A stretch of DNA of 63,892 nucleotides from a virus. Its lineage: Duplodnaviria; Caudoviricetes. The stretch covers positions 1-63,892 of the IMG/VR virus record IMGVR_UViG_3300033433_000002; one strand, written 5' to 3'. Positions 5,312-56,976 of this stretch are shown here, in pieces (the first letter of the stretch is position 1; each line of letters starts with the position of its first letter). The notes under the pieces were generated by a model. That model saw only the letters and a program-made list of their open reading frames with translations, did no database searches and was not told where the DNA came from. The position numbers and the translations under genes were made by a program.

Positions 5312-8300
5312 TTATCTCAAACTGTTTTCCTTGTAGATTCTCCGTTGTTCGCTAAACGATTGATTTACTAGCGGTTTCGATTCTCTCAGGGTTTCCTTGT
5401 AAAACTTCGTCGCCTGATCCAATCGTTTCCGCTGGTCCTCATCGAGAGATTGTTTGAATTTGTGCTTGTCCTTCCCTGAAAGCCCCGAGAGGGGATCCAT
5501 TCTCTTTAGGGATTCTTTGATGTCGCTTTTCTTGCCTCCGAGAGAGATGTATTCCAGCATATACTTGTCGAGGGCTTCCCTGTCTTCGTATCGCAAAGAA
5601 AGTTTAATGTTATAGAGGGCGTTCGCTTTAGGGGTGAGCCAGAACCCTTCCGAGGCCTTACCCTGTTTCTCCAGCCATCTTCTCTTGTCCTCCATGACGT
5701 CAGAGTATGCGGCCTGTCCGGGGTCTACGGAATAGACCAGAAAGTTCTTCAGGCTTTCCTCGTATCCCCGGGATGGGAGGCCAGCGACGGCCGTGTACTC
5801 GTTTTCCAGTCCTAGACTCCTGGCCAGATACAACCCCGTATTTCTTATAGGCTGAGGCTTGAAGATGTCTGGGAAGAGTGACCGTCCCGTAATCAACTCG
5901 GCAGGGGTCTTAATAAATGGAGTGACTCCTTGAACTACGAGATTCACCGGAGACTTTACCATATTCTCGGAAATTTCTTTCAGGGTCATCTCTCCCTTGA
6001 AATATTTGTCAACGTACTTGGGTGCTTCTCCGAGTCCGAACCAATCCAGGAAGTCCCCGAGTGCGCCGATCCGATTAAAATAGATGATCTTTCCGTCTTT
6101 GTCTCTCCCTAGAATGATATGGGGTTGTGACTTCTGATCTTCCGAGAGTTCTTCTTCCTCGTCAGGGAATCGGGTATGGTTCCAGACCTGCAAGGCTGAC
6201 CAGAACGCCGTGGCCATGATCAAGAATTTGCCTACCCTGAAGGCCATGAATGGGGTTTTCGCTAGGGTCCCGAGTGCTGCCCTGCCAACCGTCTGAGAGA
6301 ATTGACCGTCACTCGCAGCGTTCTTGGCAAATTGCACATACCTTCTGAAGTTGACCTCTTTCCAAGACCAAAACGGAAACACATATTTTCTCAAGGCATT
6401 ACCCATCACGGAAACCCTGTCATACGCTCCCAGAAGATCATTAGAAAGCCAGTAAGCCCGGTCCCTGATGTCTGAGAGTCCCATGATTTCTTCAGGCTTT
6501 GAACCTCCGAAGTTCTTAGGTTTACCCTCAGGGTTCTTTTTCATCTGATCCAGGTAATTTAGATAGTTCGCATACCTGAGAAGGGCTTCCCGGGCATCTG
6601 TGGCTATTCGTGCCGTTTCCCAATACTTCTTCCATACTCCCTTGGGAATGTCTTTGACTCCCGGATGTTGGTCTCGGTAAAGACGCTCAAATACCCACAG
6701 GTCCTTCAATTCCCCCATTTCCTGAGCCTGAAGGTTCGCGCTGAATCCCCCCCGATCAAAGAACTGCTTCAACTCTCCGGTGATCTCTTTCTTACCAAAG
6801 AGGGTGGCACCTATCTCCCTAGTGGCCCTTGGAGCATCGGAAAATCCTCGAGGATTTCCAACAAAAGCGGCATCGGCGTCACCCGTCATGTTCCGGATGT
6901 TATATTTGAGCATCCTTCTCGGAGAGATAAGCTGCCAAACCTTCCAGCCTTTCAAGAGAGCTCGGTCTGCGTTTCCGATAACCGAATCAGACCTTCCCTT
7001 TGAAAGCTCATCCAGGGTGGCGATAATCTCATCTTTAAGAACAAACTGTTTCCTCTTCCCTCCCATAGTGAGGGCCCTTCGAATATCCTCCTTCGACACT
7101 CCGAGTTCTTCCAGGGCACCGGTATGGAGTTGTTCGGCCAGTTGAGCCGGGATGGAATCGGCCATGTAAAAGATATTTCCTTCTCTCGGCTGCCAGGTGT
7201 TATATCCCTCCGGGATTATGGTTTCCCATGTCTGGAAAGCATCGGCGGCCTTTAGTGCCTCTTCGATATATTTCTTCTTGCCAGAAATACCCTTAAATAT
7301 GAGTGCCGCGGCCTGCCCTTCTGGGGTCTCTGGGTAGTTCTTCAACAGCCAGGCAAGATAAGGAAGGGTTCCCTCGTGGCTTCCACCAGAAGCGATCGAG
7401 TCAATGACCTCTGACCATTTCTGAGAAGGGAGATCCGGGAGACTTCCATCCTCCGCAAACCTCTGGAGTTTCTTGAATCCCATGGCCTGCTTCAAGTTGA
7501 GGGTTCGCCTGTAAAGGGATTGGGCAAGGTCCTCGACGGTCATCTCCTTGCCTTCGGCGTTCTCCATCCCGGGGTGCCATGCTGCTTGTGCCATGGGACG
7601 GAAAACCATGTCCATGATAGCGGTGTTGTTCATTCCCTTCGCCCGGGCCTTCAGGTCGGACATGATGTTGTAATTCTCATCAACGTTCTTGATTGTCTTG
7701 GCAACCTGGATGTCGTAGAGCATTTGGGAAACGACTTCGTATTCCGGCTGAATGAAGTCCCGGTTGATGTCGAGTTCCGAGCCTGCCCTTTTCTTTAAGA
7801 ATCCCCTTCCAGTAGGGGTCTTTAGTTTCTTTCCGGTCCCGAACAGGCCCTTCAGGTTGACGTATTCAAGGATCTGATGTCTGAAGTAGTTTTCGTTTTT
7901 CAGCCTGTCATCCACATCAAACCCTATATCCTTCATGGTACCAGTGTATTCAGTCTTGATCGTGTCCCACATCTGCTTTCGTTTATCGAGGGCTGCCTTA
8001 ATCTCCGGTCTCTGATCGATCAAGGCATTGATCCGGTCCAGTTCTGGGCCAACAGTATCCTTTGTCAATCCCCAAGGCAGGTCATGGCCCTTCTCGACTT
8101 CCCTCGCGAGGTCATCTAGGATCACCTTTCTGGTAAATAGGTCGTAATTCTCACCCTTCAGCCCCGATAGGACTTTCGCCAGGGTCACAATGGCGTCATA
8201 GGAAGCAACCCCTTTTTGCTTGGCCAACTTATTCAGGTCGAATTGAAGTTGCGAAAACTCCTTGTTCCTCGGAAGGTTCTCGTACTGCCGCGTCATCTTG

Positions 8301-11300
8301 TGCCAGATGTCGGTAAAATACTCTCCAACCTGAGAAAGAATGGGTTCTCCCTTGGGTAGGGATTCCTGGTAGGACTTCTCGACGGCTGGATCTGCAAACT
8401 CGAATGCGGGGCGCTCTGGGGATGAGGGACGGCCAAAGACAACCCTGCCGGCTGATTTTTCCCCTGCCCTCGCCTTTCGAAGTGCTTCTAGGTCACTGTG
8501 GCCATGTGCGACAATATCCTCTGCAGACCTTTCTGGTGGGGTCGCCCTTATAATCGGGTTGTTATCAAGAAGTTTTCCTATGGCCTCAACCCCTTTTTCA
8601 GAGTTCGGAATAAAATACCTAGTTTCCCAATTAACCCTCTCCTGTTCCACCCCATAGGACTTGATAAGGGATGCTTCCCCGTAAGAAGGTCCCTTTATTT
8701 CAACCCGTTCCTCTCCCTGCACCTTTCTCCTTATGATCGTCCACCCATTCGCAAGTTGAACCGTATAGGAATGGTGAAAGACGTTATTTATGACTTCTTG
8801 CGGTGTCATCTTTACGGCTGTTGTTTCTGCTCCGAGCCTTTCCCTTACACTTGACACCAACGTTGGAGGGATGATCCTCCCGAGCATCCTCTCTCCTTTA
8901 TCGGTCTGTAACCTGACAACCCGGGCATGGCCCTCGGGAAGCCGGTTATAGATGGGAAGTAAGGCTCCAGTCACAAGGTATTGCCGGTCCTTTACCTCTT
9001 TTGGAGTGACTTCGTACTCCTTCTGCCAAAGATCCTTGGCTTGTGCCTTGGTCAGTTTGACATATTTCTCGGGGTCGTTTATGTCCTCCGATTCAAGGTT
9101 GTGGACCCCATAGTTCATTCCGGTTGCGGTATAAGCCGTGGTGACATCTCCGGTCCTGGCGTTCGTCTTTGATTTTGCCTCAGAGAGAGCCCACACCCTT
9201 CCGCTTTTTATGTTTTGAACATATCCACCCTTTGAGAATCTGTCTGACTTCTCCCACGGGATGATATGGGCGTCCCGGGTCAAGTCGAGTTCCACGAATT
9301 TTGTCTTGGCGCCGGTCCTCGGATCGGTATAGACTACCTGTTCGCTAATCTTCTCAATCTTGTTTGCCCTCACGGTTTCGAGGCCTGCGTCAAGGGTTCC
9401 ATTCTGAATCGCCTTGGCTATCTCTAGGTCTAACTTCTCGGAGAAGAGGTCAAATACCTTATCCTGCATATCAATCTTCATTGAGAGGATACGATTCAAG
9501 AACTGTGGAACTTCTGGAATGGCCGTTACGTTCAAATTCCCAGTCCGGTCATCAATCAGGTTTATCCCGAGCTGGTCCGAAAACTCTCTCAGCGTCATGT
9601 CTGGGACGTTCCCGCGCGAAACATCTTCAACGAGAGCATCCAAGGCGTCATTCGCATACTGGCTTTCAAGGTTGTCACGCTCAGAGAATAAACCCTGTCC
9701 TCCGGTCTGACGCTGACCTTTCGTTAAAGCCCCGAGTTGGTCGAGCCTTCTGGCGATCGACGAAATGAACCGCTTTTGTCCCTTCAGGTCCGTGGTCACA
9801 AGGAAATACTCGGGAGGTTGAGCCTGGTTTGTTCTATGAGTTCGGCCCAACCCTTGAACCGCCCTATCTGCCCTCCAGCCTGGTTGAACCAGGTAGTGCA
9901 TCCTCGGGCTCTGATTCTTCGCGGTAAGGTCGGCGTGGTAACTCCGTCCTGTCCCTCCTGCGTAGGTGAAGGCAAGGATTTGCTTCTTGTTATTCATAAA
10001 GGCATCGGCATCATTCATCGCCTTCGCCTTCGATCTCTTGTCTACTATCCGGTGGGTTCCTTTTTCGTCGGTGACTTCGATAACCCTTCGTGTCCTTCCG
10101 GAAACCTCAGCAACCTTGTCTACCCCGAAATGGTTGATGATCATATCCAGCGGATTGTCCGGGACCTTGATGCTTCCAAGCCTATCAAGAAGGGCATCAC
10201 GCATGGCTACGGCTTCAGCGTTTTGGACGGGATTACCATTCGAATCTACCGTAAGTTCAGATTTTATATTTCCATCTGCATCCATAACCTCATGGTATTC
10301 GTTCACTGGAAAACTGTGTTGTATAAACTGCATCAGTTGTTCCCGGGGGGTGAGATCAAGGTCTTCAAGGGTGTCTTCCTCTTCCATCTTGGAAAGCGCC
10401 CTGTTTGTCGCCGCTTCGTTCGTATTGACGAGCTGAAGAACAACGGAATTTCCCTTACCCAAATCTGTCTCAATATTCTTTACCACGGTAGGCATCTGCA
10501 TAGCCGTGATGATCTGGTTGAAGAACCTTTGATGATTTCCCCAAAAAGCTGACATGGCGGCTGATTTTGCCTGTCCATTAAGGGTTTGTGGTCTTCCCGT
10601 CTGTGGGTTTGGTGATGTAACCCCTGTTGCTTCGAGGGCTGCGTTAATGTTCTGGAGGACGATTTGCCATGCCCCTGCCAGCTCGTCGTAGACTTCCCGC
10701 TGCGCCGGGGTCAAGGTATGTTCCATCCGGGAGTATTTCACCCCATCATAGGAAAGCGACCGAGCCGTATATTTTCCCATGGCCTTCAGGTTGCTGGCCA
10801 CCATTTCGAGATTTGCCATGCCGCCGCCACTGATCTTATTGATAAAGTCGTTCACATCTGCGAAGGCTGCCCCCTGGCCCCACAATCCGAGGCGTCTCGC
10901 ATAAGCGAAGTTCATTACCTCTGTGGCTCCGGTTGCAGAGACATAGACTATCCTTGCGTTCGGGAGAGCGTTTTGAAGTGCTATCCCAGAGAGAGCTTTT
11001 GCTGAGGCCTTCTTCCTTCCCCTGGTTCCCTGCGTTTCGATGGCGTTACCCATATTGTGAGATTCATCGAAAGCGATAACTCCGTCGTAGTCCTTCCCAA
11101 ACCAGTCAATGAGCTGATTTAGGCGCGACACTTCAGGGGCAGCGGGTTGTCCTGGTTCCGTAACCTGTTTCTTTTTCCATCGAAGAAGGTCATATCCGAC
11201 AAAGGCAATTCCTTCTTTGTTCTTTACCTGAGATCCAGCCTTGATCTTCCCGAAGTCGAAAACGACATCTGGGTTAAATCCAGTCCCCTTGACATCCCTC

Positions 11301-14300
11301 TTGGCGTCCTCAATCAAAGGAGAGTTCTGGCTTAACCAGATCCCTTTCTTGCGTCCTTGTCTCCAGTTGTCAAAGAAGATCCCGGCAATCTCGCGGCCCT
11401 TGCCTACTCCGGTCCCGTCACCGATGAAATAGCCCTGTCTTACTGCCTTCGAGACCGAATCATCTGTGACGTTTCTTGCCTCTACCGGATTTCCTTCTTT
11501 GTCAAACCATTGTGTTCCGGGAAGAAATTCCGAATGGGCCTGCCCTGCATAAATGATCGATTCGAGTTGGACGTTACTGAGCTTTCCAGATTCAATGACG
11601 TTGGCGGGAAGGTTAGGACTATACTTTGCGTCAGGTGGATCGACACTCGACATGGCCGCGCTTTCAACGATCGGCCCGGGATGGGGTTTCGATCCCTTGA
11701 CTATGGCTTTTTTTGGCTTGTAGTTTTCGTAGAGAGAATCGGTAAGATCGGTAGGGTTCTCTTCTTCCTTGGTCTGTTCGAGGGTTACGGTAGACTTTTC
11801 ACGCTCGGATAATCCTTCAGGAGAAGGTTTAGTTTCGAGTCCAGGGCGTCCAGGAGTTCCCACGACAGGTCCTCCGGCTCCTTGAATCGGTTCGGGTTGT
11901 TCACTAGCGGGTACTGCTCCCCGTCCTCCGACGTTCTCAACCACCGGTACGCCTTTATTTGGTTCGCCCCGAGAAGTTCCTCCAGGTTGGCCCTTAACCG
12001 GCTGTCCCTTGCCCGGAGTTTCCCGCTGTCCAGGCCCCACAACATAAGTTGAAGGCAATACAGTTGGCTCGGGTCCGGAGGCACCTTCAACTCTTGCAGG
12101 AACTTTTTGCACTTCTTGTTCAGGTTGTCTTGGTTCGGCAGCGATTCGGGCATCTCTTACCTCCTGCAACAGAGGGATCGCGTCCTTAACGTCCTCGACG
12201 GTCCCGGTAACAGTTGGCTTCCCCGTGGGTGGGGTTTTATCGATAACCAAAATCCGATTATCGTAATTCGTTCCGTACTTGGCATATCCTTTGCCTCCTA
12301 CCACTATGTTAGCAGAAAGGTTGTATTTGTCAACAATATTCTTTAGCCAGTCGGTGACGGCCTTCGGATCGGCAAACCATCCCTTTCCGATCAAGGCCAC
12401 CATCCGGCCACCATCCTCTAATCTCTTGAAGGCCTGATCAAGATGAGTAACGACATTTGCGGACTTCCGCTGTCCCTGAATCCTTCCAGCCGTCGAAGAG
12501 AATGGGGGGTTCATCAAGACCACCGTTGGCTTGACATCTTTCGGGAGAATGTTGTTGATCTGCTCGGCGTTCTCGGTGAAGACCTGATCGAATCCCATCT
12601 GTTTAAGAAGGTCTGCGCGGCGCGGGGATAGTTCGTTTACGATGGTCTTGGCACCTGCGACCTTGGCGAATGAGGCAATTCCCCCAATCCCTGCGCTCGG
12701 TTCTAAAACGGTATCTTTCGGGGTGATGTTCCCGGTCCATGCCATTGTATAGGCCAGGTCTGGAGGGGTCGAAAACTGTTGAAATTCATCCATCTCAGGG
12801 GTACGGATACCGGACTGAGAGGGGATTTTCTCCATGATTTCTTGACGAATGGCGTCAATACTTAATCTTGCCTGTTGGGGAAGATCTACCGTAGGATCAA
12901 ACTGCTTCCCACGATCAACGATATACTGATTTATCCCCATCTCCATCGCGTCAAAGGCGTCTTTGGCATTGTATTTGCCTTCGCTGATGGTACCCCCGTA
13001 GGCTTCTGCAGCCTTTTGCATGAGTTCGGCCTTTTCGAAGGGTGTCCCTAAAGTAAGGCGGTCTTTGACCCAGGAGGCGACGGTAGAAGATGGGGTTTGT
13101 TTTATTTCTTCTGGAGGTGTGACCTTCTCCCAATCACTCTCCTTAAAGTGCATATTCCCGGTTTCATTCGTCTTGATCCATCGGCTTCCATCGGGATTTG
13201 TTCGGATATGCTGCACTCTTTGAGATTTACCAGAGGCAAACCCAATTCCACTATCCTTCTTTGGTTTAACGTAATCGCCTATTTCTAATCGCCCCGGTTT
13301 CTCCCCAACCAAGTGCCCCTCTTCCCCCTCGGGCTGCACAACGATACCTTGGCGGGTCGGGATGATTTTGGCCTTGTCGGGTTTCTTTGTTTCTCCAATA
13401 CCCTCTATGGTAGGTTGCCCCTCCTCCTCAGCCTTCTTCGCTGCTTCCATCAACGGAGATCCTTCAAGCGTAGGTTCGCCTTTAATGCCCTCTTTTGGCA
13501 TTTCAAGACCGACCTTCATGCCGGGGAGAAGTGTTTCACCTTTTTTTGTGGGGGACGGTGCTGGCTTTAATTCAGGAGTGGCTTCTGGTGCCGCGGCTTC
13601 TTCTCGTTCTTCGAGGTCAAACCATTCGTGGAGTTCCTCTTCTGCAAGGTCTTCAGGTGGAGCTTCATTCTTGTAAGCTGTCTCAGCCGATCCAACTTCT
13701 CTTTCAATGAGGTGTTCGGGGACGCCATCGGCTTCCAAGTCCTTTCTCAGATCCATTATCTCATTATCAATGGTGTCTGTCAATGAATTTATTGTGTCGC
13801 TCTGGAGAAAGTGGGGATCCTGCTCCATTTGGGCCTTGATATGGGCTTCTTCGGCCTTTCGGATAGCCTCATTGGTGATAGGTGCCCCTTTCTTTCCTCC
13901 AAAGATGGAGTCGGTGATCATCTGCGCCAGGTCGTCGGTTGTCGTACCTTTCGGGAGGTCCCCTTCGGCCTCTCCCATCTGAGCCAAAACGTCAAGGTAT
14001 TGACCGTCTTTTCGAACCAACCCGACCGGACCTTTCCCTCCAGCCCTGCCCCACGCCTCGATGTCGGCTGAGGGGTCGGTGGAATTTATACCGCCTTTTG
14101 ACTTGATCCAGGCGATTACGTTTAGCGGCTTTTCTAAGACCGGGGTTTCTTTTTGTCGCTTCGGTTTGGCAACCCCTGTTTGTCCCGGGAGATCGCTTCT
14201 GCTTGGCTGTATGCCTTTTGTAGATTCTCCGGATGGGATGTCCCGATCGTACCACTTTCCTTGTAACGGTTTACCAGTTCCTTTATGTTGTTCGACAGCA

Positions 14301-16384
14301 CCCTCTTCCCTCTTCCCGGTGTCAACGGCATTGGTGGCCTCCTTTTTAAAGTGCTTTTCAAAAAAGGTTTTCAAATCAGGATTAACCTTTTCGGGACTTG
14401 TCAAATAATCCCCGTAATCCATAGCAAGATGTTCCCTGATGAAGTTTATGTGCATATCATCAGGGGCCCTCATCAACTTTGAGTATTCTTCCAGGAGGGG
14501 ACTGTCTGAAAGTTTCTGAATATCCCCTAATTTATCTTCTATTTGAACGTGCCCAATTTCGTGATTTACTATCGCGGGATCTTTAGCGTCGGCCTCGCTC
14601 TCAAAGACGAGCCGTTTGTCCTTCCAGTCAACCTCTGCCTGCCATCCAGGGGTTTTCCTCCAATTCGGTTGAATAGCCGTCGTCCATCCTTCGGGGATAG
14701 ATAGTGGCTCTTTACCCTTCCCCTGCGCCTCCACCGGGGCTATTTCAGGCTTTTCTGGAGGGGTGGCTGTCTCACCCTTGGCCTCTACCTTTTGGGGGGC
14801 TTGTGGGGCTTCTGGAGGGACAAACATATCCCCGACCCGGGTGTACCCTTCTGGTAAACGATGTTTCAAACCCTGGTCATCAACAGCCCTTGCGTTAACG
14901 GCCTTGCCTTCCCTGAGTGCCCCCAACACTTCAACGTCGTTGGCGTTCCCGAGTCCTGCGGTCTTGTATTCATTAGGAGTCATCTCCCACGGTTCTTTTA
15001 CCCCACCACCCTGAACGGGTTGTAGAACCTCTTCGGGCGGGGCTTCGGGGGTTGGTAGGGCTTCGGGGGGGACTTCGGCTTTTGCTTCTTCAACGGGGGG
15101 CACCTTTGGCTTTGCGGCTTCAACCTTCTTCTCCTGCTCGGCAATCTTCTTGTCGATCTCGGTAGGTTCCGTCTTGACGGCCTTCTCCCTGATTGCCGCT
15201 TTCTCTTCAGGGGTGATCTCGGGGAGGGGTTCTTCCATACCCTTCAAGGTCCGGACGCCGGGGGTGGCTTGGGTAACTCCCTCGCCCTTTTCCCTCAGCC
15301 TGATCTCCTGTTCCTTCAGGGTCTTATTCAGCCTTGCCAGTTCCCCGGTCGTGTATCCAAGGTTCTTGATCTCGGCCTCGGTAAGAATCTGACCACTGAT
15401 TTCCATCTCCTTAATGAAGAGGTCGGCATCCTTCGGGGTGTAGGATTCGGCCGCGGTCGGGTATTTTGCCTTCAACTCCTCACTTCTGGCCTTAAAATCA
15501 TTCTTTACTGAGGCCCGTTGTGCCTGCGCCCTGGCCGAGAGTTCTTCGGCAGATTGAAGAACAAGGCCTCGCTCTTTATTGGTCAACCCCCTGAACCACT
15601 CCCCAACCTTCCCAAAGACACCCCTTCCGACTTCCCCAAAGAGGGCACCGTAGGCAATCAGTCCCGCCGCTTCCATGGCGGTATCCTGGTTGACTTCCTT
15701 TATCCCTGCCAACTGCTCGTAAAATGGGACTTGGGACTCACCGAATCGCTCAATAGCTGACTTCGGGTCTGCCCACAGGGAAGGTTCCCCGGTCTTTAAA
15801 ACCTCGCCCTTCTGCTTCAACTGTTCGCGTTTGGCAAGGGTTCTCTGGGCAAGTCCCATCTCGGGGCTGACGAATCCGCCGGGGGTGTAACCCTCCATTG
15901 TCTTGGCGGCTTTGGTCAGGGGTCCCTCGGGGACCTGTGGCGTCAATTCCCTGGTAGGTGAAGGCGCCACTCCTGCCGGTCCCCCCATCATGGCGGTAGG
16001 TCCGAGTTGAGATTCATCGAAGGCGGAAGGGGGTTCGGTGGGTGCCGGTGCCGGAGTCTGTGGCCCCGTCGCATACTCACCCTTGGAGAATCTCCCAAGG
16101 TTGAATTCTTCCCTGACCTGTTGCAAAACCTCGGCGTCTGGCATACCCTGTTTGATAAGTTCATCCATCCTGGCCGTGACTTCCGACTCCATCTCCTTGG
16201 GCATGGAAATATCGACGGTCCCAGGAGGCGCCGGAACCTCGGGCTTGACGGTCAGTTCGCGGGTGGGTTTATCCGGTTCGGCACCTTCTTCATACCACTT
16301 CCTCGGCTTTCCAAAGACAGCAGTTTTAGCCCTCTGGTAAAGGGAAGGTTTCTCTTCGGCGGTATTTTCGTCGTACCACGCCAT
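5312..16384 (-). CDS. 3690-aa DarB-like large polyvalent internal virion protein: HExxH domain, amino-methyltransferase, strawberry-notch SF2 helicase, helical C-terminus
   Basis: NHEIGH; LEPSAGIGG and MNPPF; GDGTGVGKGR, FDESH, YVSATGA, QGLGRTHRTNQ; follows the ejection genes. Confidence 0.85.
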   Translation of the reverse strand: MAWYDENTAEEKPSLYQRAKTAVFGKPRKWYEEGAEPDKPTRELTVKPEVPAPPGTVDISMPKEMESEVTARMDELIKQGMPDAEVLQQVREEFNLGRFSKGEYATGPQTPAPAPTEPPSAFDESQLGPTAMMGGPAGVAPSPTRELTPQVPEGPLTKAAKTMEGYTPGGFVSPEMGLAQRTLAKREQLKQKGEVLKTGEPSLWADPKSAIERFGESQVPFYEQLAGIKEVNQDTAMEAAGLIAYGALFGEVGRGVFGKVGEWFRGLTNKERGLVLQSAEELSARAQAQRASVKNDFKARSEELKAKYPTAAESYTPKDADLFIKEMEISGQILTEAEIKNLGYTTGELARLNKTLKEQEIRLREKGEGVTQATPGVRTLKGMEEPLPEITPEEKAAIREKAVKTEPTEIDKKIAEQEKKVEAAKPKVPPVEEAKAEVPPEALPTPEAPPEEVLQPVQGGGVKEPWEMTPNEYKTAGLGNANDVEVLGALREGKAVNARAVDDQGLKHRLPEGYTRVGDMFVPPEAPQAPQKVEAKGETATPPEKPEIAPVEAQGKGKEPLSIPEGWTTAIQPNWRKTPGWQAEVDWKDKRLVFESEADAKDPAIVNHEIGHVQIEDKLGDIQKLSDSPLLEEYSKLMRAPDDMHINFIREHLAMDYGDYLTSPEKVNPDLKTFFEKHFKKEATNAVDTGKREEGAVEQHKGTGKPLQGKWYDRDIPSGESTKGIQPSRSDLPGQTGVAKPKRQKETPVLEKPLNVIAWIKSKGGINSTDPSADIEAWGRAGGKGPVGLVRKDGQYLDVLAQMGEAEGDLPKGTTTDDLAQMITDSIFGGKKGAPITNEAIRKAEEAHIKAQMEQDPHFLQSDTINSLTDTIDNEIMDLRKDLEADGVPEHLIEREVGSAETAYKNEAPPEDLAEEELHEWFDLEEREEAAAPEATPELKPAPSPTKKGETLLPGMKVGLEMPKEGIKGEPTLEGSPLMEAAKKAEEEGQPTIEGIGETKKPDKAKIIPTRQGIVVQPEGEEGHLVGEKPGRLEIGDYVKPKKDSGIGFASGKSQRVQHIRTNPDGSRWIKTNETGNMHFKESDWEKVTPPEEIKQTPSSTVASWVKDRLTLGTPFEKAELMQKAAEAYGGTISEGKYNAKDAFDAMEMGINQYIVDRGKQFDPTVDLPQQARLSIDAIRQEIMEKIPSQSGIRTPEMDEFQQFSTPPDLAYTMAWTGNITPKDTVLEPSAGIGGIASFAKVAGAKTIVNELSPRRADLLKQMGFDQVFTENAEQINNILPKDVKPTVVLMNPPFSSTAGRIQGQRKSANVVTHLDQAFKRLEDGGRMVALIGKGWFADPKAVTDWLKNIVDKYNLSANIVVGGKGYAKYGTNYDNRILVIDKTPPTGKPTVTGTVEDVKDAIPLLQEVRDARIAAEPRQPEQEVQKVPARVEGASGPEPTVLPSTYVVGPGQRETPGKGQPVKGQPGGTSRGEPNKGVPVVENVGGRGAVPASEQPEPIQGAGGPVVGTPGRPGLETKPSPEGLSEREKSTVTLEQTKEEENPTDLTDSLYENYKPKKAIVKGSKPHPGPIVESAAMSSVDPPDAKYSPNLPANVIESGKLSNVQLESIIYAGQAHSEFLPGTQWFDKEGNPVEARNVTDDSVSKAVRQGYFIGDGTGVGKGREIAGIFFDNWRQGRKKGIWLSQNSPLIEDAKRDVKGTGFNPDVVFDFGKIKAGSQVKNKEGIAFVGYDLLRWKKKQVTEPGQPAAPEVSRLNQLIDWFGKDYDGVIAFDESHNMGNAIETQGTRGRKKASAKALSGIALQNALPNARIVYVSATGATEVMNFAYARRLGLWGQGAAFADVNDFINKISGGGMANLEMVASNLKAMGKYTARSLSYDGVKYSRMEHTLTPAQREVYDELAGAWQIVLQNINAALEATGVTSPNPQTGRPQTLNGQAKSAAMSAFWGNHQRFFNQIITAMQMPTVVKNIETDLGKGNSVVLQLVNTNEAATNRALSKMEEEDTLEDLDLTPREQLMQFIQHSFPVNEYHEVMDADGNIKSELTVDSNGNPVQNAEAVAMRDALLDRLGSIKVPDNPLDMIINHFGVDKVAEVSGRTRRVIEVTDEKGTHRIVDKRSKAKAMNDADAFMNNKKQILAFTYAGGTGRSYHADLTAKNQSPRMHYLVQPGWRADRAVQGLGRTHRTNQAQPPEYFLVTTDLKGQKRFISSIARRLDQLGALTKGQRQTGGQGLFSERDNLESQYANDALDALVEDVSRGNVPDMTLREFSDQLGINLIDDRTGNLNVTAIPEVPQFLNRILSMKIDMQDKVFDLFSEKLDLEIAKAIQNGTLDAGLETVRANKIEKISEQVVYTDPRTGAKTKFVELDLTRDAHIIPWEKSDRFSKGGYVQNIKSGRVWALSEAKSKTNARTGDVTTAYTATGMNYGVHNLESEDINDPEKYVKLTKAQAKDLWQKEYEVTPKEVKDRQYLVTGALLPIYNRLPEGHARVVRLQTDKGERMLGRIIPPTLVSSVRERLGAETTAVKMTPQEVINNVFHHSYTVQLANGWTIIRRKVQGEERVEIKGPSYGEASLIKSYGVEQERVNWETRYFIPNSEKGVEAIGKLLDNNPIIRATPPERSAEDIVAHGHSDLEALRKARAGEKSAGRVVFGRPSSPERPAFEFADPAVEKSYQESLPKGEPILSQVGEYFTDIWHKMTRQYENLPRNKEFSQLQFDLNKLAKQKGVASYDAIVTLAKVLSGLKGENYDLFTRKVILDDLAREVEKGHDLPWGLTKDTVGPELDRINALIDQRPEIKAALDKRKQMWDTIKTEYTGTMKDIGFDVDDRLKNENYFRHQILEYVNLKGLFGTGKKLKTPTGRGFLKKRAGSELDINRDFIQPEYEVVSQMLYDIQVAKTIKNVDENYNIMSDLKARAKGMNNTAIMDMVFRPMAQAAWHPGMENAEGKEMTVEDLAQSLYRRTLNLKQAMGFKKLQRFAEDGSLPDLPSQKWSEVIDSIASGGSHEGTLPYLAWLLKNYPETPEGQAAALIFKGISGKKKYIEEALKAADAFQTWETIIPEGYNTWQPREGNIFYMADSIPAQLAEQLHTGALEELGVSKEDIRRALTMGGKRKQFVLKDEIIATLDELSKGRSDSVIGNADRALLKGWKVWQLISPRRMLKYNIRNMTGDADAAFVGNPRGFSDAPRATREIGATLFGKKEITGELKQFFDRGGFSANLQAQEMGELKDLWVFERLYRDQHPGVKDIPKGVWKKYWETARIATDAREALLRYANYLNYLDQMKKNPEGKPKNFGGSKPEEIMGLSDIRDRAYWLSNDLLGAYDRVSVMGNALRKYVFPFWSWKEVNFRRYVQFAKNAASDGQFSQTVGRAALGTLAKTPFMAFRVGKFLIMATAFWSALQVWNHTRFPDEEEELSEDQKSQPHIILGRDKDGKIIYFNRIGALGDFLDWFGLGEAPKYVDKYFKGEMTLKEISENMVKSPVNLVVQGVTPFIKTPAELITGRSLFPDIFKPQPIRNTGLYLARSLGLENEYTAVAGLPSRGYEESLKNFLVYSVDPGQAAYSDVMEDKRRWLEKQGKASEGFWLTPKANALYNIKLSLRYEDREALDKYMLEYISLGGKKSDIKESLKRMDPLSGLSGKDKHKFKQSLDEDQRKRLDQATKFYKETLRESKPLVNQSFSEQRRIYKENSLR

Positions 16385-49763: not shown

Positions 49764-49861
49764 ACTGGATCTTCTTTGGAATTGGCGTGTTCGTTGGCAG
49801 CTTTATCACCTTAATTGTAGTGGCAATCATAATTGACGGAAAAGAGAGGAGGTTCACATGA
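49760..49861 (+). CDS. 33-aa membrane peptide
   Basis: [25 protein letters not shown]; ATGA overlaps at both ends. Confidence 0.6.
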
Positions 49862-50904
49862 TAAGAGTTTTTCTAATCGCAATGGTGTTTTTGGCTATGG
49901 TGAATCCGGGTTTTGCTCAGTTTGATATTGCAGGAACTATTGCTAGACCAGATCAAGTCGCTCAGTTATCCATATTGACCCCAACTTGTGCTTGCTACTC
50001 AAACGGAGACTGCGGCACAGGTAATTGCTGCTACAATGCCGGGACAAGCTCGGCTTACTGTGCTCCATGTGGGTGCATTACTTGCCCTCCTGGGCCTCCA
50101 GGTCCACAGGGACCAGCCGGACCAGTGGGGCCTCCAGGCTTGACCGGCCCACAGGGACCAAAAGGCGATCCGTCAACCGTTCCTGGTCCACAAGGCCCTC
50201 CTGGTTTAACCGGCCCACAGGGAGCTACAGGCCCCGTAGGACCACAAGGACCAAAAGGGGATAAGGGAGATACGGGAGCACCCGGGCAAGGCTACCAAGG
50301 GCCACAGGGACCCCAAGGACCACAAGGATTGAAGGGAGACAAGGGTGATACGGGGTCAAAAGGGGATAAAGGGGATACCGGACCGGCCGGACCTGGAGGA
50401 GGAGGCCCGAACCGCTGTGTGGTTGATAAGTTTTATGGCTACCAACCACAGACAGACGATTGCCGACTAATTTTTGTCACCACAGAAGTCTTTACCGGAA
50501 ACCTCGGAGGATCCGATCAGGCCGATAAGATTTGCCAAGGGATCGCGGAGGTAGTGAACCTCTGGAACCCTACCGCATACAGAGCCTTCATTTCAGACAT
50601 ATCTCGAATCACTCATTCATCTGTTCCATACTTTAACCTCAAGGCCGCTATGGTCGCGGAGAACTGGAACGCCCTCATTTCACAACCATTAAATAGGGCA
50701 ATTCGCTTTGATCAGTTTCAGCACATCGTCTCCGCACCGTTTCAGGTCTGGACCGGGTTCGTTGAGGATTGCAAAGGGTGGACCTCCTCATCCTCGTCCG
50801 CAAGGGGAACCCACGGCCTAAGCAATACCATTGACGTTTGGGAAGACAACGGGGAGTTGTCCTGCTCAAAGAAGGCCCATTTGTACTGCATCGAAGAAGA
50901 CTGA
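49858..50904 (+). CDS. Secreted collagen-like protein with C-terminal endostatin-like (DUF1554-like) domain
   Basis: Signal peptide; Cys-rich knot; ~32 Gly-X-Y triplets; IFVT...GNLGG...AD..C...YRAFIS...VWTG..C.GWTS...C.....LYCIE. Confidence 0.82.
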
Positions 50905-51215: not shown

Positions 51216-51226
51216 GAGGAAGGAAG

Positions 51227-52129
51227 ATGAGCGAGAATGAAGAACGAGAAAACCTACCGGCAATAGCAGATGATTTTTTGATTCAGGTGGCGGATCAGGC
51301 CGAGCGCAGGGTTGACGCGGTAATGAAGATCAAACGTGTATCCCTGAAGGTTACGAACGCGAGGGATTGGACCGACCAGAATGGCAACCCCTATTTACAG
51401 GTCAGCGGGTCCGAGAAGATTGCCAACCTCTTCAACATCTCATGGAGGATTGACGAACCTCTCTATAACGAAGAACCGGACGGCCATTTCACATGGACCT
51501 ACAAAGGATATTTCACTCTTGGAGGCCGGTCGATAGAGGCAATAGGAACGAGATCAAGCAAAGATGCCTTTTTCAACAAATACTCTTATGGGGATGCAGA
51601 TGAGGAAGGAAAGAAGAAAAAGACTCTTCTGCCTCCATCTGCTATCGACAAAGGAGACGTTAAGAAAGCCGCCATGACAAACCTCTTCGGGAACGGTATC
51701 ACCCGCATCCTTGGAATCCGAAACCTCACATGGGACGACCTGAAAGAATTCGCCGGGATCACTAAAGATCAGGTATCGGCCATCCAGTACCGTAAGGGTG
51801 GAGAAAAGCCTTCAATACAAGAGCCTCAGAAGAAGAACGGGGATACCAAGACCGACAACCTCACGGCCTCCATTACCATCAAATCAGTTGAGATTCAGAC
51901 CAAAGACAAGTCCGGTAAAGACCTGAAAAGCCATCGGTATCACATTCTCAGCGACGAGGGTAAACGATACGTCACCTTCGACAAGAAGTTTTATGACTTG
52001 TCCTTGCCATTAGCAAAGACGACCCAAATTCTGAAGGTCGAATACAAAGAAACCCAATTCGGGAATGACATTGTAAACCTTTCGATAGTTGAGCCAGAAG
52101 AACCGCCGGAGCCGGGGAGCGAGGGGTAG
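51227..52129 (+). CDS. Probable single-strand annealing/recombination protein
   Basis: PYL..SG.EKI..LF, G.RSS, V.K.A.....GI..ILG; OB-like C-terminus; upstream of an exonuclease. Confidence 0.55.
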   Translation: MSENEERENLPAIADDFLIQVADQAERRVDAVMKIKRVSLKVTNARDWTDQNGNPYLQVSGSEKIANLFNISWRIDEPLYNEEPDGHFTWTYKGYFTLGGRSIEAIGTRSSKDAFFNKYSYGDADEEGKKKKTLLPPSAIDKGDVKKAAMTNLFGNGITRILGIRNLTWDDLKEFAGITKDQVSAIQYRKGGEKPSIQEPQKKNGDTKTDNLTASITIKSVEIQTKDKSGKDLKSHRYHILSDEGKRYVTFDKKFYDLSLPLAKTTQILKVEYKETQFGNDIVNLSIVEPEEPPEPGSEG

Positions 52130-52132
52130 GAA

Positions 52133-52288
52133 ATGGAATTGTGTTCTGCTTGCGAAGAAGGTAGACATTGGGATTGTAATTTGGCTACTTGGTGAATGTG
52201 CGATTGCGATGGTGAGGCGGTCGGGCCTTACTCGGAACCTTACGATGAATTGCAACAAGATAGATTCGAGGAATATGAAGATGGCTGA
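52133..52288 (+). CDS. 51-codon Cys/His-rich protein with in-frame TGA (candidate selenoprotein)
   Basis: MELCSACEEGRHWDCNLATW*MCDCDGEAVG...EDG; fills the gap between neighbours; TGA 52193-95 sits in a (*)xCxC motif. Confidence 0.55.
52207..52234 (+). promoter_or_regulatory. SECIS-like hairpin
   Basis: GTGAGGC-GGTCGG-GCCTTAC; loop begins at the 24th base after the TGA. Confidence 0.4.
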
Positions 52289-52847
52289 TCTCGAATTCAT
52301 CGAAGAGGGCCACGTTTACAAAATAGGGGACCGTCGCCTTATAAGCGTGACCCAGGCCCTAAAGGTCGTGGATGATCGATACAAAGTTGACCCCTGGTAC
52401 TTTGAAAGAGGCCGGATCATACATCTCTGCACAGAATACGAGGACCGGGACGAACTCGACCTGGATACCGTAGATACACAGGTTGCCGGATATGTCCAGG
52501 CCTACGTCACCTTCAAGAAAGATACCGGATTTAAGCCCACGATTATCGAGAAGCCAATGGTTCATCCGAAGCTGTGGTATGCTGGCAAGCCGGACAAAAT
52601 AGGCCCCTTAAACGGCATCCTGGCGTTGATCGACCTAAAAAGTGGCGCTCCGGCCAAGGTTGACCCGCTTCAGGGTGCCGCTTACTGGGAACTGGCCATC
52701 GTTAACGGTATTCCGGTCAAGAAGGCATTCGATCTCTACCTAAAGGACGACGGGACCTACAAGCTGGAGCCGATACAGAACCCGAAATCACTTTTGCCGG
52801 TGTTCCTGGCCGCGCTCCGCATAACCCAATGGAAAGAAAAGTTATGA
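52281..52847 (+). CDS. PD-(D/E)XK exonuclease (Cas4/RecB-like)
   Basis: F.EE.H.Y, SVTQ, RG..IH, E......YAG..D, ID.KS, Q..AY. Confidence 0.85.
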   Translation: MADLEFIEEGHVYKIGDRRLISVTQALKVVDDRYKVDPWYFERGRIIHLCTEYEDRDELDLDTVDTQVAGYVQAYVTFKKDTGFKPTIIEKPMVHPKLWYAGKPDKIGPLNGILALIDLKSGAPAKVDPLQGAAYWELAIVNGIPVKKAFDLYLKDDGTYKLEPIQNPKSLLPVFLAALRITQWKEKL

Positions 52848-53014
52848 TTGCTTCTCGCCTAAAATGGATCATTACAGGTTTAGATTGGGAACGCTTAACT
52901 CCGTGGGAAGAGAAGTTCGTCGAGGATATGGAAAATTACTTTAATCGAAAGGGTGATCTCACCGACAAACAGGAAGAAATCTTAGAACGAATTTACAAGG
53001 AGAAATCAAGATGA
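52844..53014 (+). CDS. 56-aa protein, paralog 1
   Basis: LTPWEEKF..D......L.DKQ...LERIY. Confidence 0.75.
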   Translation: MIASRLKWIITGLDWERLTPWEEKFVEDMENYFNRKGDLTDKQEEILERIYKEKSR

Positions 53015-53649
53015 ATGACATCGAAGCCGTAAAAGCAGAAACGCTACCCATCCCACTTTCAAGGGCAGAAATATGCAGAAGATCGAGAGCCCGAAAGCGT
53101 GGAGAAGTTGTCGAACCAAGACAATACCCTACCGGAATAAATAACCATGCGTGGAGGGGTGGTTACCATTCGGCACGTTGCGACTTTTGCGGAGATATTT
53201 TCTTTGGCCCTAAACATGAATTGAAGCATAGAAAGTATTGCTCAAAATCATGTTATTGGAAAGATAAATTAAAACCAGACCGAAGGAGAATAAGAGTCCA
53301 CGACAAAATAGCAGAAAAAGCATTAGGGAAGATACTCCCTTTGCAAGCTGTAGTTCATCACGTAAACAGGAACAGGAAAGATAGGACTCATTCAAACCTT
53401 GTTATTTGTCAAGATCAAGCCTATCATCTTTTGCTTCATGCTCGAAAACGGATATATGACGCTGGTGGAAATCCAAATATAGATAAGGTTTGCGCCAAGT
53501 GCGGTCAAGTAAAACCCAAAAAGGACTTTCATATCTCGCAGAGAGGTGATGGTCGAAGATGTTATTGTAAACTGTGTCAGGCCCAATACCATCAAGAAAG
53601 GAGATCACATGGAATCCTTAACCAATCTTCCAGAAGTGCAGGAAATTGA
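53011..53649 (+). CDS. HNH endonuclease with Zn-finger motifs
   Basis: WRGG, C..CG, YCS..C, H..IAE..LG..L....VHH.N....D....NL.IC..H...H, CAKC, CKLC. Confidence 0.85.
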   Translation: MNDIEAVKAETLPIPLSRAEICRRSRARKRGEVVEPRQYPTGINNHAWRGGYHSARCDFCGDIFFGPKHELKHRKYCSKSCYWKDKLKPDRRRIRVHDKIAEKALGKILPLQAVVHHVNRNRKDRTHSNLVICQDQAYHLLLHARKRIYDAGGNPNIDKVCAKCGQVKPKKDFHISQRGDGRRCYCKLCQAQYHQERRSHGILNQSSRSAGN

Positions 53650-54349
53650 ACAGGCAAAGTCAAAGTTTTTAACCGTTGCTCTCTCAACTAAAGTAATAGA
53701 TCATGCTTCCCTTGAATTGGGGAATCAACTTTTCCTTCAAGCCGATTCTGCTTTAAAGGCCATTGATGACAAACTTGACCCAAAGCGAGAACTGGCCTAC
53801 CGCGCCTATCAGGAATGGCTGAAACTCATCAAGGAACTGAAAGACCCTTATCTGAAGGCAAAGGCTTATCTCAATGGTCAGATTGTGGATTATAAACGGG
53901 AACAGGATAGGAAGAGGGATGAGGAACAGGAAAGGCTCCGACAAGAAGCCTTGAAAGCGGAAGCGGCTCGGCGCAAGGAGGAAGAGGATCGAAAGACTCA
54001 GGAAGCAGCAGACTTAGAAGCCGCAGGTCTACAGGAAGAAGCCCAAGCCCTCGTCGATGAGGTCATCGAGGACATCGGGAAGCCGGTCGAGGTCTATGTC
54101 CCTCCACCGGAAACGGCAAAGGTGAAGCTGGACGGGGCGAGCATACGAGAGACCTGGAGCGCCCAAGTAACAGATCTCCGGGCCCTGTGCCGCGCCGTGG
54201 CCGATGGTAAGGCACCCCTAGCCTACATAGAAGCCAATATGACGGCTCTCAATGCTCAGGCCCGGTCTCTTAAAAAGGAGCTAAACATCCCTGGAGTCAA
54301 GTCCGTGTCGAGCCAGTCCATGTCAGCCACCGGCAGAAGGGCAGCATGA
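53609..54349 (+). CDS. Coiled-coil early protein
   Basis: AAGGAG RBS; long charged helix; W...V.D...L and IPGV C-terminus. Confidence 0.65.
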   Translation: MESLTNLPEVQEIEQAKSKFLTVALSTKVIDHASLELGNQLFLQADSALKAIDDKLDPKRELAYRAYQEWLKLIKELKDPYLKAKAYLNGQIVDYKREQDRKRDEEQERLRQEALKAEAARRKEEEDRKTQEAADLEAAGLQEEAQALVDEVIEDIGKPVEVYVPPPETAKVKLDGASIRETWSAQVTDLRALCRAVADGKAPLAYIEANMTALNAQARSLKKELNIPGVKSVSSQSMSATGRRAA

Positions 54350-54653: not shown

Positions 54654-54895
54654 GCAATGGACGGCACATAAATTGGGAACTAAATAAAGATGCTTCAGGG
54701 AATTTTTTGACATCCACCGCAACTCTTGGAGTTCTCATGGACATAAGGGATGAGTTGGAAAAACTCAATCGGGTCTTTAAGTGTAGCAATTTCATTTCCA
54801 TTCCAAGGGTCTTGAAGTGTAGCAATTTCATTTCCATTCCAAGGGTCTTGAGAATATCTGCAAACACGGCCAAGCCGAGGAAAAAGAAGAGATGA
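54650..54895 (+). CDS. Hypothetical protein with an internal 12-aa duplication
   Basis: VLMDIRDEL..LN..C.NF..IP..L; ATGA-coupled. Confidence 0.7.
   Translation: MSNGRHINWELNKDASGNFLTSTATLGVLMDIRDELEKLNRVFKCSNFISIPRVLKCSNFISIPRVLRISANTAKPRKKKR
54779..54850. repeat. Perfect 2 x 36-bp tandem duplication
   Basis: AAGTGTAGCAATTTCATTTCCATTCCAAGGGTCTTG twice, in frame. Confidence 0.95.
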
Positions 54896-55062
54896 TAGAA
54901 TCCCGCCTGAAATGGATAATTTGCGGGATAGAATGGTCGTTGCTAACTCCTTGGGAAGAGAAATTCATAGAGGATGTCGAGGCCTACTTTAAAAGAAAAG
55001 GTGACCTCACCGACAAGCAGGAAGAGATTTTAGAGAGGATCTACAAGGAAAAATCAAGATGA
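54892..55062 (+). CDS. 56-aa protein, paralog 2
   Basis: MIESRLKWIICGIEWSLLTPWEEKFIEDVEAYFKRKGDLTDKQEEILERIYKEKSR; below the ORF-track cutoff. Confidence 0.75.
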   Translation: MIESRLKWIICGIEWSLLTPWEEKFIEDVEAYFKRKGDLTDKQEEILERIYKEKSR

Positions 55063-55850
55063 ATCGAACAAAGATAGAATATCTTGATTACACGTACAAT
55101 CCTATAGCCATGCGCTGCGCTCCTGTCTCTGTGGGGTGTGCTCATTGTTGGCATCTCTCTATGGCCAAGAGGCTGGCAAATAATCCCACGATTGACGATG
55201 ACCGGCGACACGCTTATACGGGAGGAACCCCGCTCCTTATTGATGAAGAACTTCAATCCCCTATCCATCTCAAAGGGCCTGCCAGAATTGGTTGTCAACT
55301 AATGGGAGATCTTTTCCATAAGGACGTGCCCGAAGAATGGCGAGGGAAGATCCTGACGCTTGCCAGAGCCTTACCACAACATAAATTCTTCTTTCTTACC
55401 AAAAGACCAAAGGAAATGCAGATCACCCTATGGGCTTGGGATATGAAAGGGGATACCAGTGGGTTAAATTGTGATCATCTATGGTTTGGGGTAAGCATCG
55501 AGGACCAGAAAACCGCCGACGAGAGGATACCGATTCTCCTTCAGACCCCCTCGGCCCACAGGTGGGTGAGTATTGAGCCGATGTTGGGGCCGGTAGATCT
55601 TCGTCAAGTTAGGTATATGCATGGTAATTCTCTTTTTGTTGGAGATGAGGGAGGATACGAGTACACCGGATCTAAAAGAAGTATGATTGATTGGGTCGTT
55701 CTTGGCGGCCTCTCCCTTCCCGGCGGCAAGGTCCAGGCTCCCAAGAAGGAATGGGTTTACTCCATCGTCGAACAGTGTGATGAGGCGGGAGTACCCTGCT
55801 TCATTAAGCCGAACGCTCAGTATCCAATCGAGAGAAAGGATTTGCCGTAA
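55059..55850 (+). CDS. DUF5131 (phage Gp37/Gp68) family protein
   Basis: TKIE..D.T.NP...C..VS.GCAHC, MGDLFH, LTKRP, GVSIEDQ..ADERIP.L, S.EP.LG, IDWV..GG. Confidence 0.92.
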   Translation: MNRTKIEYLDYTYNPIAMRCAPVSVGCAHCWHLSMAKRLANNPTIDDDRRHAYTGGTPLLIDEELQSPIHLKGPARIGCQLMGDLFHKDVPEEWRGKILTLARALPQHKFFFLTKRPKEMQITLWAWDMKGDTSGLNCDHLWFGVSIEDQKTADERIPILLQTPSAHRWVSIEPMLGPVDLRQVRYMHGNSLFVGDEGGYEYTGSKRSMIDWVVLGGLSLPGGKVQAPKKEWVYSIVEQCDEAGVPCFIKPNAQYPIERKDLP

Positions 55851-55860
55851 GCAGATGAAT

Positions 55861-55914
55861 TTGACTTCCCCCACGACCAGGAGTATAATCCCACCCAAAT
55901 CCTTGGGAGGGTGG
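55861..55914 (+). promoter_or_regulatory. Integrase promoter with an RBS-occluding hairpin
   Basis: TTGACT-17-TATAAT; CCACCC/GGGTGG stem encloses GGAGG. Confidence 0.75.
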
Positions 55915-55917
55915 ACC

Positions 55918-56976
55918 ATGGCCGGCAGCTTGAAGGAATACCGCCCCGGACAGTGGCGGATTAGAATGTCGTGGAAAGGGAAACGAATTGAAATCTACAC
56001 GATCGAGATCCGGGGAGTTTGGCACAAGCTGAGCGGAAACACTGGCCGCTATCTCCTGGATCACCTGTCTAAAGTCTACGATGACCCCGGTTTTGACCTT
56101 AACGACTACCTCCAGAAGAAAGATCACCCTTTCCAGTTTAAGGAGGCCTGCGACCTCTGGATCGACAATTCAAATTGCTCCCAGGAATGGTTGGAGGCCA
56201 GGGAAAAGATTGCCGAGAAGTACCTGAAGCCTTATTTCATCGACTTTGACATCCGAGACATCAAGAAGATTCACCTGGAGGGGTTTGTAAAATACCTCCG
56301 GGGCCATGACCTGAAAGACAAGACGATCCACAACTACCTCGGAGAGGTCAAGGCCATGCTCAACTTTCATGCCGAATCTCTCCCCCGGATCCCCGTCTTT
56401 CCAAAAGTCCCCTACCAGGAGCCCACCATCCGGTGGATGACCGCCGAGCAGCAGGATCACGTCTTTGAGTTCATCCCGGGGAGAGATTTGCCTATTTTCA
56501 CCTTCCTGCGCTACACAGGTTGCCGTCCAAACGAGGCCGGGGGATTACTGAGGGAGAATGTGTACCGGGATAAGGGGATCGTGGTTCTGGAGACGGTTTT
56601 AGGGGGTATGGGCCAGTTGAAACCCAATACTAAGACCAGAAAGAGCAAGCCGCTGCCTATCATCCCGGAGATTGAGTGGGCCCTGACTCCCAAGAGACTT
56701 GGGAAATATGTCTTTCAGACGGTCACCGGCCGGCCATACCGAAAGCGGCGACTGGAGGACATTTGGGATGAAGCCTGCAAGAGAGCCCTGGATACTTACA
56801 ATGTGCCGAGGGTCCCACTCTACCAAGGCCTGAAACACTCCTTCGGTTGCCAGCGCCTTGCCTCCGGGTTTACGCTCGATCAGATCGCCGCGGTCATGGG
56901 CCACACCGATACCAGGACAACAAAGAAATACGCCAAGTTTGAGGTAGCAAATTTAGCAAAGGTGATGAAGGGATGA
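55918..56976 (+). CDS. int: Tyrosine integrase
   Basis: TGCRPNEA, TKT, LKHSF, MGH.D..TT.KYA; attP immediately downstream. Confidence 0.92.
   Translation: MAGSLKEYRPGQWRIRMSWKGKRIEIYTIEIRGVWHKLSGNTGRYLLDHLSKVYDDPGFDLNDYLQKKDHPFQFKEACDLWIDNSNCSQEWLEAREKIAEKYLKPYFIDFDIRDIKKIHLEGFVKYLRGHDLKDKTIHNYLGEVKAMLNFHAESLPRIPVFPKVPYQEPTIRWMTAEQQDHVFEFIPGRDLPIFTFLRYTGCRPNEAGGLLRENVYRDKGIVVLETVLGGMGQLKPNTKTRKSKPLPIIPEIEWALTPKRLGKYVFQTVTGRPYRKRRLEDIWDEACKRALDTYNVPRVPLYQGLKHSFGCQRLASGFTLDQIAAVMGHTDTRTTKKYAKFEVANLAKVMKG

Follow-up and report, generated by a model that had tools for sequence, protein, structure and literature searches.

How UGA is recoded as selenocysteine (Sec) has been investigated in depth for cells and for two poxviruses, and a phage selenoprotein would be unusual. 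Bacterial selenoprotein genes are normally recognized by four signatures, namely a Sec/Cys pair in the alignment, conservation of the reading frame downstream of the UGA, a hairpin that is compatible with models of the Sec insertion sequence (SECIS) and independent recurrence. The SECIS of Escherichia coli fdhF has the loop GGUC, and its minimal form contains a bulged U in the upper stem and lies at a fixed distance of 11 nt from the UGA. The bacterial SECIS model, in the parts of the source used here, asks for an apical loop of 3-9 nt, an upper stem of 4-16 bp, a minimum free energy (MFE) of -7.5 or lower, a G in the first two loop positions and 16-37 nt between UGA and loop; the loop is described as small, starting with G followed by G or U (PMC13188914). 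The same parts list small selenoproteins with Cys motifs or metal-binding sites, such as the dual CXXC protein OS_HP3, a CYCXC family protein and the metal-binding double selenoprotein MbdU (PMC13188914). Viral selenoproteins have been described as the glutathione peroxidases of molluscum contagiosum virus and fowlpox virus, the fowlpox SECIS being located in the coding region, and the consulted sections of this 2021 review on viral recoding name only these two poxvirus proteins (PMC8310308). A report of a phage-encoded selenoprotein gene was not found in our literature search; the words "phage", "virus" and "viral" have no occurrence in the main text of a 2026 review of the prokaryotic selenoproteome (PMC13188914), and a 2023 paper contains only speculation, based on tRNA-Sec calls in huge phages. 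Here we analyze a small Cys-rich frame with an in-frame TGA at positions 52133-52288 (+) of a phage genome, IMG/VR record IMGVR_UViG_3300033433_000002. The whole stretch, called the window in the following, is 63,892 bp long, carries a 127-bp terminal repeat and is complete as a viral record. All four signatures usually applied to selenoprotein genes are present at this locus. As judged from its sequence, 52133-52288 is probably a single gene whose Cys-rich product has 51 residues, with codon 21 (UGA) being decoded as Sec by SelA, SelB, SelC and SelD of the host.

The frame starts with ATG at 52133, with a Shine-Dalgarno-like GAGGGG (52121-52126, +), read from the sequence, 6 nt ahead of it. 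The start codon is followed by 19 codons, the TGA at 52193-52195, 30 further codons and a terminal TGA at 52286-52288. The translation, MELCSACEEGRHWDCNLATW-(TGA 52193-52195)-MCDCDGEAVGPYSEPYDELQQDRFEEYEDG-(TGA 52286-52288), has the TGA as codon 21 and no further stop, so that the gene spans 51 codons plus stop. The stored gene calls lack this frame. The original prediction had pointed to an uncalled 51-codon frame filling the gap between an upstream stop at 52129 and the start of an exonuclease gene, which it overlaps, and sequence and translation confirm this arrangement: the end of the frame overlaps the exonuclease start (ATG 52281) by 8 nt.

Homologues were searched with the read-through product (P0001), C standing for U. 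A phmmer search of 1.84 billion representative proteins gave 39 matches with E<=1e-3, of which three long, repetitive Cys-rich proteins were set aside. The remaining 36 are small (44-106 aa, the best of these small proteins with E of 1e-7 to 1e-3), align across the TGA position and carry Cys there in 35 cases. A profile search of 5.8 billion proteins returned 164 matches, and the phmmer set together with the best 120 of these gave 140 distinct family proteins for comparison. In the column of the TGA, 139 of them have Cys and one has Arg. The original prediction had the TGA in place of the first Cys of a CxCxC and suggested a search for homologues with Cys or a conserved TGA at codon 21; such a search shows a nearly invariant Cys in this column. 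The sole protein with Arg at column 21 is a metagenome protein (P0094); two of the codons for Arg, CGA and AGA, differ from TGA by a single step. Near the N-terminus, the family is defined by the motif C4-x2-C7-x4-H12-x2-C15-x4-W20-C21-x-C23-x-C25, followed by an acidic tail studded with aromatic residues, and the window protein agrees with every motif position except codon 21. The predicted product of 52133-52288 thus belongs to a family that lacks annotation and consists of small phage proteins with the pattern CxxCx4HxxCx5CxCxC and an acidic tail. An earlier candidate explanation, in which ORF1 (MEL...EEG) was a relic duplicate of the exonuclease N-terminus, was dropped after the family had been found.

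In the window an ATG (52196-52198, +) follows the TGA directly; should translation terminate at the TGA, ribosomes might reinitiate here and make an acidic peptide of 30 aa. Hence, the locus might consist of two micro-genes, the first (52133-52195) for a CCHC peptide of 20 residues and the second (52196-52288), with a restart at TGAATG, for the acidic one of 30 residues, and C4, C7, H12 and C15 could form a four-ligand site on their own. However, 139 of the 140 relatives are single proteins across the TGA point, and the ATG is not conserved: the second TGA form of the family, described below, lacks an in-frame ATG, GTG or TTG downstream of its TGA. We regard two separate micro-genes as very improbable.

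What the family does can be approached from its ligand pattern, which suggests that the Cys/His cluster may bind a metal; the metal finger named in the original prediction was likewise derived from this pattern. Sec at codon 21 could then serve as a metal ligand or have a redox role. An AlphaFold2 model of the small protein has a mean predicted local distance difference test (pLDDT) score of 71 and a single short helix, and ligand sets are not assignable in it. A natural homologue (P0098) matched unnamed ESM Atlas clusters only, with values of 0.84-0.85, which we take as leads only. Comparison of the read-through protein with GenBank phages by tblastn gave four records, all with E>=3, and a word-index protein search gave nothing. 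In other phages the genes next to family members vary widely, including a sliding clamp, a RusA-like protein, a transposase and unknowns, and offer no functional lead. OS_HP3, the CYCXC protein and MbdU resemble the selenoprotein proposed for the window in being short, in carrying Sec for Cys within clustered Cys motifs and in that this Sec may act as a metal ligand, according to the parts of the source used here (PMC13188914). A sequence relationship to them is not seen: NCBIfam, which holds these models, has no match for the window protein, the second TGA form or three Cys forms.

We show here that the exchange of Cys for TGA has a counterpart in a second phage. A fixed-spacing motif scan of IMG/VR with TGA at codon 21 yielded five loci, four of which are off-frame chance matches in genes rich in Ala and Cys codons. 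The fifth is a true member (L028), encoded in a complete phage of 61,194 bp (G001) and reading MLCEACKQDKHFLCGMQTW-TGA-ECDCDGQYGLYDAEPREDSSWIDIDDPDECAEV. It has a good Shine-Dalgarno sequence, and its TGA falls into the same column as that of the window. In the window, the stretch after the TGA (MCDCDG and an acidic tail) aligns with the xCxCDG tail of the family, and the same holds for L028, so the conserved frame extends beyond the TGA in both. When TGA or Cys was allowed at all six Cys codons, 52 IMG/VR loci were found; ten of them are clear all-Cys members, three are looser members, one is L028, and off-frame noise makes up the rest. A profile-guided scan added four Cys forms. The clear members in IMG/VR thus number 16, of which 14 are all-Cys forms and two are TGA forms with the TGA at codon 21; in these scans, no family-like frame showed TGA at another of the six Cys codons or a stop elsewhere in the core of 22 codons. 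A scan of a one-genome-per-species collection gave 35 loci and no TGA form; only two of the loci are family-like, a clear Cys form (L096) in a metagenome-assembled genome (MAG) of the Binataceae, in which SelB is not over the cut-off, and the doubtful L110.

The two TGA forms are not close to each other. Only three protein matches, all of them weak, link G001 with the window. In core identity each TGA form reaches 78-83% to Cys forms, compared with 52% to the other TGA form, and each ranks the other only 96th and 125th of 131. Since both TGA forms are closer to Cys forms than to each other, two separate Cys/TGA switches have to be assumed, and Sec appears to have arisen twice from Cys in this phage-specific protein family. 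The same data have to be read against the view that both TGA forms are nonsense mutants of a dispensable accessory gene, in which translation stops after about 20 residues and the remainder has not yet decayed. Cys codons differ from TGA by a single base, this stop is common and efficient in both phages, and each TGA form comes from one sequence lineage; close relatives of the locus were searched for with the exonuclease, the window small protein and the L028 protein, and none were found. However, nonsense mutation would have to strike the same codon in two unrelated complete phages, where codon 21 accounts for only 1/33 (window) and 1/29 (L028) of the single-base routes to a stop, which makes random nonsense at this codon unlikely. 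The neighbouring conserved Trp codon, at which a transition would give TGA, is unaltered, the 14 other IMG/VR members are free of stops in the core and of TGA at the other five Cys codons, and the window TGA is unchanged in a second sample. Further, model-compatible hairpins are found in both TGA forms, at levels reached by 1% and 5% of the background. Taken together, we consider two nonsense mutants unlikely.

The candidate SECIS hairpin of the window is located at 52211-52232 (+), with the arms 52211-52218 (GGTGAGGC) and 52225-52232 (GCCTTACT) and the loop GGTCGG at 52219-52224. It has 8 bp, two of them G-U, the RNA loop GGUCGG and a spacing of 23 nt, and its energy is -12.4 kcal/mol alone and -13.9 extended. 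A 7-bp hairpin with this loop, beginning with the 24th base after the TGA, had been proposed from the sequence; hairpin and loop position hold, and the stem counts eight pairs if the terminal G-U is included. The hairpin of L028 is smaller, with 5 bp, loop GUA, a spacing of 20 and energies of -7.4 alone and -11.2 extended. Both TGA forms have hairpins that fit the model in all four respects, and in both phages the stem starts 15 nt past the TGA. The window hairpin is matched or bettered by 1.1% of the 2,324 TGA trinucleotides of the window, and that of L028 is matched by 5.1% of the 2,201 in G001. As a control we used the Sec site (...CSRS-TGA-HAPTV...) of a formate dehydrogenase (FDH) alpha subunit gene with one in-frame TGA from a SelB-positive Verrucomicrobiia MAG (L135; G005:C37:100994-105997), which gave 7 bp, loop GGUCU, a spacing of 18 and -12.5. 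Thus, the window loop and its 8-bp stem resemble a cellular FDH site, and the locus shares with bacterial genes of the fdhF/formate dehydrogenase type a UGA at a conserved Cys column, coding conservation beyond it and a hairpin downstream. The loop also shares its GGUC start with the E. coli fdhF loop. In contrast to the minimal fdhF element, the window stem lacks a bulge, and its distance from the UGA is 15 nt. A search of 51500-53000 against Rfam (E<=10) gave four weak, irrelevant matches.

Among the Cys forms, one (L124:3001-3200) has a model-fitting hairpin with a spacing of 36, loop GAGG and an extended energy of -25.3; a hairpin of this kind can therefore also form downstream of a codon for Cys. 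Of 15 clear Cys forms scored at the corresponding position, two reach -7.5 (L036 with -7.7 and L124 with -25.3) and one reaches -11, and the chance that both TGA forms are among those that pass is 6/136 at the -7.5 threshold and 3/136 at the -11 threshold. Because two of the 15 Cys forms also pass, the hairpins give moderate support to decoding as Sec and do not settle the question; the hairpins behind Cys codons in L124 and L036 count in favour of the nonsense explanation.

Since the record is a metagenome assembly, an error at the TGA had to be considered as well. The window stretch has no differences in Logan contigs of run X1, which is possibly the source of the record. In run X2, from another sample and study, a 554-nt contig spans 51989-52542, including the TGA, again with 0 differences (contig depths in the two runs 11.6 and 3.8). 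An assembly error was therefore rejected for the window, and the check for errors that the original prediction had asked for is largely provided by the second sample. A phage with TGA as a sense codon throughout (code 4 or 25) was rejected likewise, because under table 11 the window has 47 long open reading frames (ORFs), 23 of which terminate with TGA, and G001 has 56, of which 25 do so, making TGA the commonest terminator in both. That an error or a genome-wide code change explains the locus is thus hardly conceivable.

Several observations weigh against decoding of codon 21 as Sec. The number of TGA forms is two, each a single sequence. The small protein has no match in Pfam, PHROGs, NCBIfam, PDB sequence profiles or Foldseek searches of the PDB. 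Hairpins were scored with our own implementation of the model rather than with bSECISearch, with one positive control. Two of the 15 Cys forms pass the -7.5 threshold, as mentioned, the L124 hairpin is stronger than that of either TGA form, and 9-14% of random TGAs pass this threshold too. Unconstrained folding of the window region is no better than that of shuffled sequences (z -1.28, 22 of 200 shuffles as good), for L028 it is worse than shuffles (z +0.66), and by plain MFE of a 44-nt segment L028 is about 7th of 20. A tRNA-Sec is encoded neither by the window, which is devoid of tRNAs, nor by G001, which has a tRNA-Thr only, on which a sub-threshold RF01852 match lies. Apart from these points, the locus differs from the fdhF type in that it is phage-encoded and specifies a 51-residue Cys/His cluster rather than an oxidoreductase, and its Sec machinery would have to be borrowed from the host. 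The proposal of a Sec-containing finger stands in part: homologues with Cys across the position, the downstream frame, the second TGA form, the hairpins, the use of TGA as a normal stop elsewhere in both phages and the two data sets speak for it, and the moderate hairpin statistics and the missing phage tRNA-Sec speak against it.

The portal protein of the window is 35-39% identical to portals of Burkholderia and Ralstonia podophages of roughly 60 kb. In a search for the host with the capsid protein of the window, relatives were found in 10 of 401 genomes from the order to which a Silvimonas MAG (G407) belongs, the six best of the 13 matches listed having 46-56% identity, in one of 29 genomes in the family of G570, and in none of 401 genomes in the phylum of G003. 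In the G407 order, SelB is over the cut-off in 110 of the 401 genomes, a tally that includes the unpublished genomes G790, G437 and G616, but only in three of the ten capsid carriers, which adds to the points against Sec; SelA is also found in one of the five best capsid carriers. A Sec-competent host for the window phage is plausible.

The UGA might also be read through on purpose without being decoded as Sec. In one version, Cys would be inserted by an opal-suppressing tRNA of the host, such as a SelB-dependent selC* tRNA-Cys(UCA) or an allo-tRNA; in another, low near-cognate readthrough would keep the full-length protein scarce. The relevant parts of one study report that a delta-proteobacterial selC* tRNA-Cys with UCA anticodon translated the opal codon in an E. 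coli test, and that possible suppressor allo-tRNAs occur in Acidobacteria and in forest and peat metatranscriptomes (PMC5389517). As described there, recoding by selC* tRNA-Cys(UCA) and SelB* resembles the reading proposed for the window in that UGA at Sec/Cys positions is decoded with a Cys-type residue via a SelB-like route; the system differs in inserting Cys instead of Sec and in being known from few anaerobic lineages (PMC5389517). On the evidence for the window, the two are indistinguishable. The runs that contain the window are labelled peat metagenome, with no RNA run listed among them, and recurrence at a Cys codon together with a hairpin is equally compatible with SelB-dependent Cys insertion. 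On the other side, no such tRNA was found in the window or in G001, and a general opal suppressor would clash with TGA as the main stop of both phages. Near-cognate readthrough of UGA in bacteria is mostly due to tRNA-Trp, which would make the conserved Trp codon next to codon 21, rather than the Cys codon, the expected site of a TGA. Because the recurrence is at the Cys codon and not at this Trp codon, insertion of a Cys analogue is favoured over plain readthrough, and deliberate reading of the UGA as something other than Sec seems quite unlikely to us.

If codon 21 is indeed a Sec codon, expression of the gene can be pictured as follows. Ribosomes would start at AUG 52133, and the hairpin 52211-52232, with its loop GGUCGG 23 nt past the UGA, would recruit SelB-GTP-Sec-tRNA(Sec). 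Sec would be placed where the relatives have the first Cys of their CxCxC triad, and translation would continue to UGA 52286-52288, overlapping the exonuclease start. Without selenium or without SelB, the ribosome would halt after 20 residues. Translation of the exonuclease might then be tied to the Sec supply of the host, a possibility raised in the original prediction.

The gene is embedded between two phage genes that are partners elsewhere. Upstream lies 51224-52129 (+), in most related loci a conserved partner 5' of the exonuclease, with a TAG stop at 52127-52129. It had been labelled an annealing protein, a label that we could not confirm: Pfam, PHROG, NCBIfam and PDB all gave no match. 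Downstream, a PD-(D/E)XK-type exonuclease (phrog_298, E 5e-19) is encoded at 52281-52847 (+), and its start is overlapped by the small gene (ATGGCTGA). The start Met at ATG 52281 is common to 87 homologues, some of which match PF12705; an alternative ATG is at 52275. The exonuclease has a GAGGAA of its own at 52268-52273, 7 nt ahead of ATG 52281. The stored exonuclease call (P0002, 200 aa, 52245-52847, +) begins 12 codons too early, within the small frame, which we attribute to the in-frame TGA: it leaves the small frame uncalled, and the early start is a side-effect of annotation. Upstream gene and exonuclease are syntenic in L001, L004, L006, L008, L010-L012, L014, L015, L017 and L018. In the exonuclease relatives the stop of the upstream gene directly abuts the exonuclease start, compared with a spacer of 151 nt between the TAG and the exonuclease start in the window. 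The small gene is absent from the nine IMG/VR and 16 metagenome loci of exonuclease relatives that were examined, a set that leaves out P0003 with its 82% identical exonuclease. Since the two genes abut in the relatives, the small gene is an insert particular to the window phage. A cluster look-up of ten exonuclease homologues gave no named cluster.

Further along the same strand, two paralogous small ORFs, 52829-53014 and 54892-55062 (+), have identical last 22 residues and flank two genes, one for an HNH endonuclease (53011-53649) and one that is phrog_10477/RecE-like (53546-54349). The pair around this inserted block looks like a duplication. Elsewhere, the window contains an integrase-like gene (phrog_1) at 55687-56976 (+), in a genome with 127-bp terminal repeats, a protein with collagen repeats and DUF1554 at 49858-50904 (+), and an ORF of 3,690 aa at 5312-16384 (-).

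Poxviral glutathione peroxidases are comparable to the window gene in that a virus would encode a selenoprotein and depend on the Sec machinery of its host. The poxviruses infect eukaryotes and have captured cellular glutathione peroxidase genes with a eukaryotic SECIS, whereas in the window the virus is bacterial, the hairpin beside the UGA is of the bacterial type and the protein family is specific to phages. From the sequences at hand, we are inclined to think that selenoproteins of the bacterial type are encoded by phages, that a ligand Cys was replaced by Sec at least twice independently, in unrelated phages and each time with a SECIS-like hairpin in the coding sequence, and that production of these proteins would depend on SelB and selenium of the host. 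With an insert of about 160 nt and a hairpin that resembles enterobacterial and FDH-type SECIS elements, the case lends itself to direct testing. If true, gene callers would systematically miss such genes, as here, where the frame is uncalled and the exonuclease call is stretched into it, and the Sec trait might be a marker of host range. It would also mean that phages are able to use the most specialized decoding system of their hosts.
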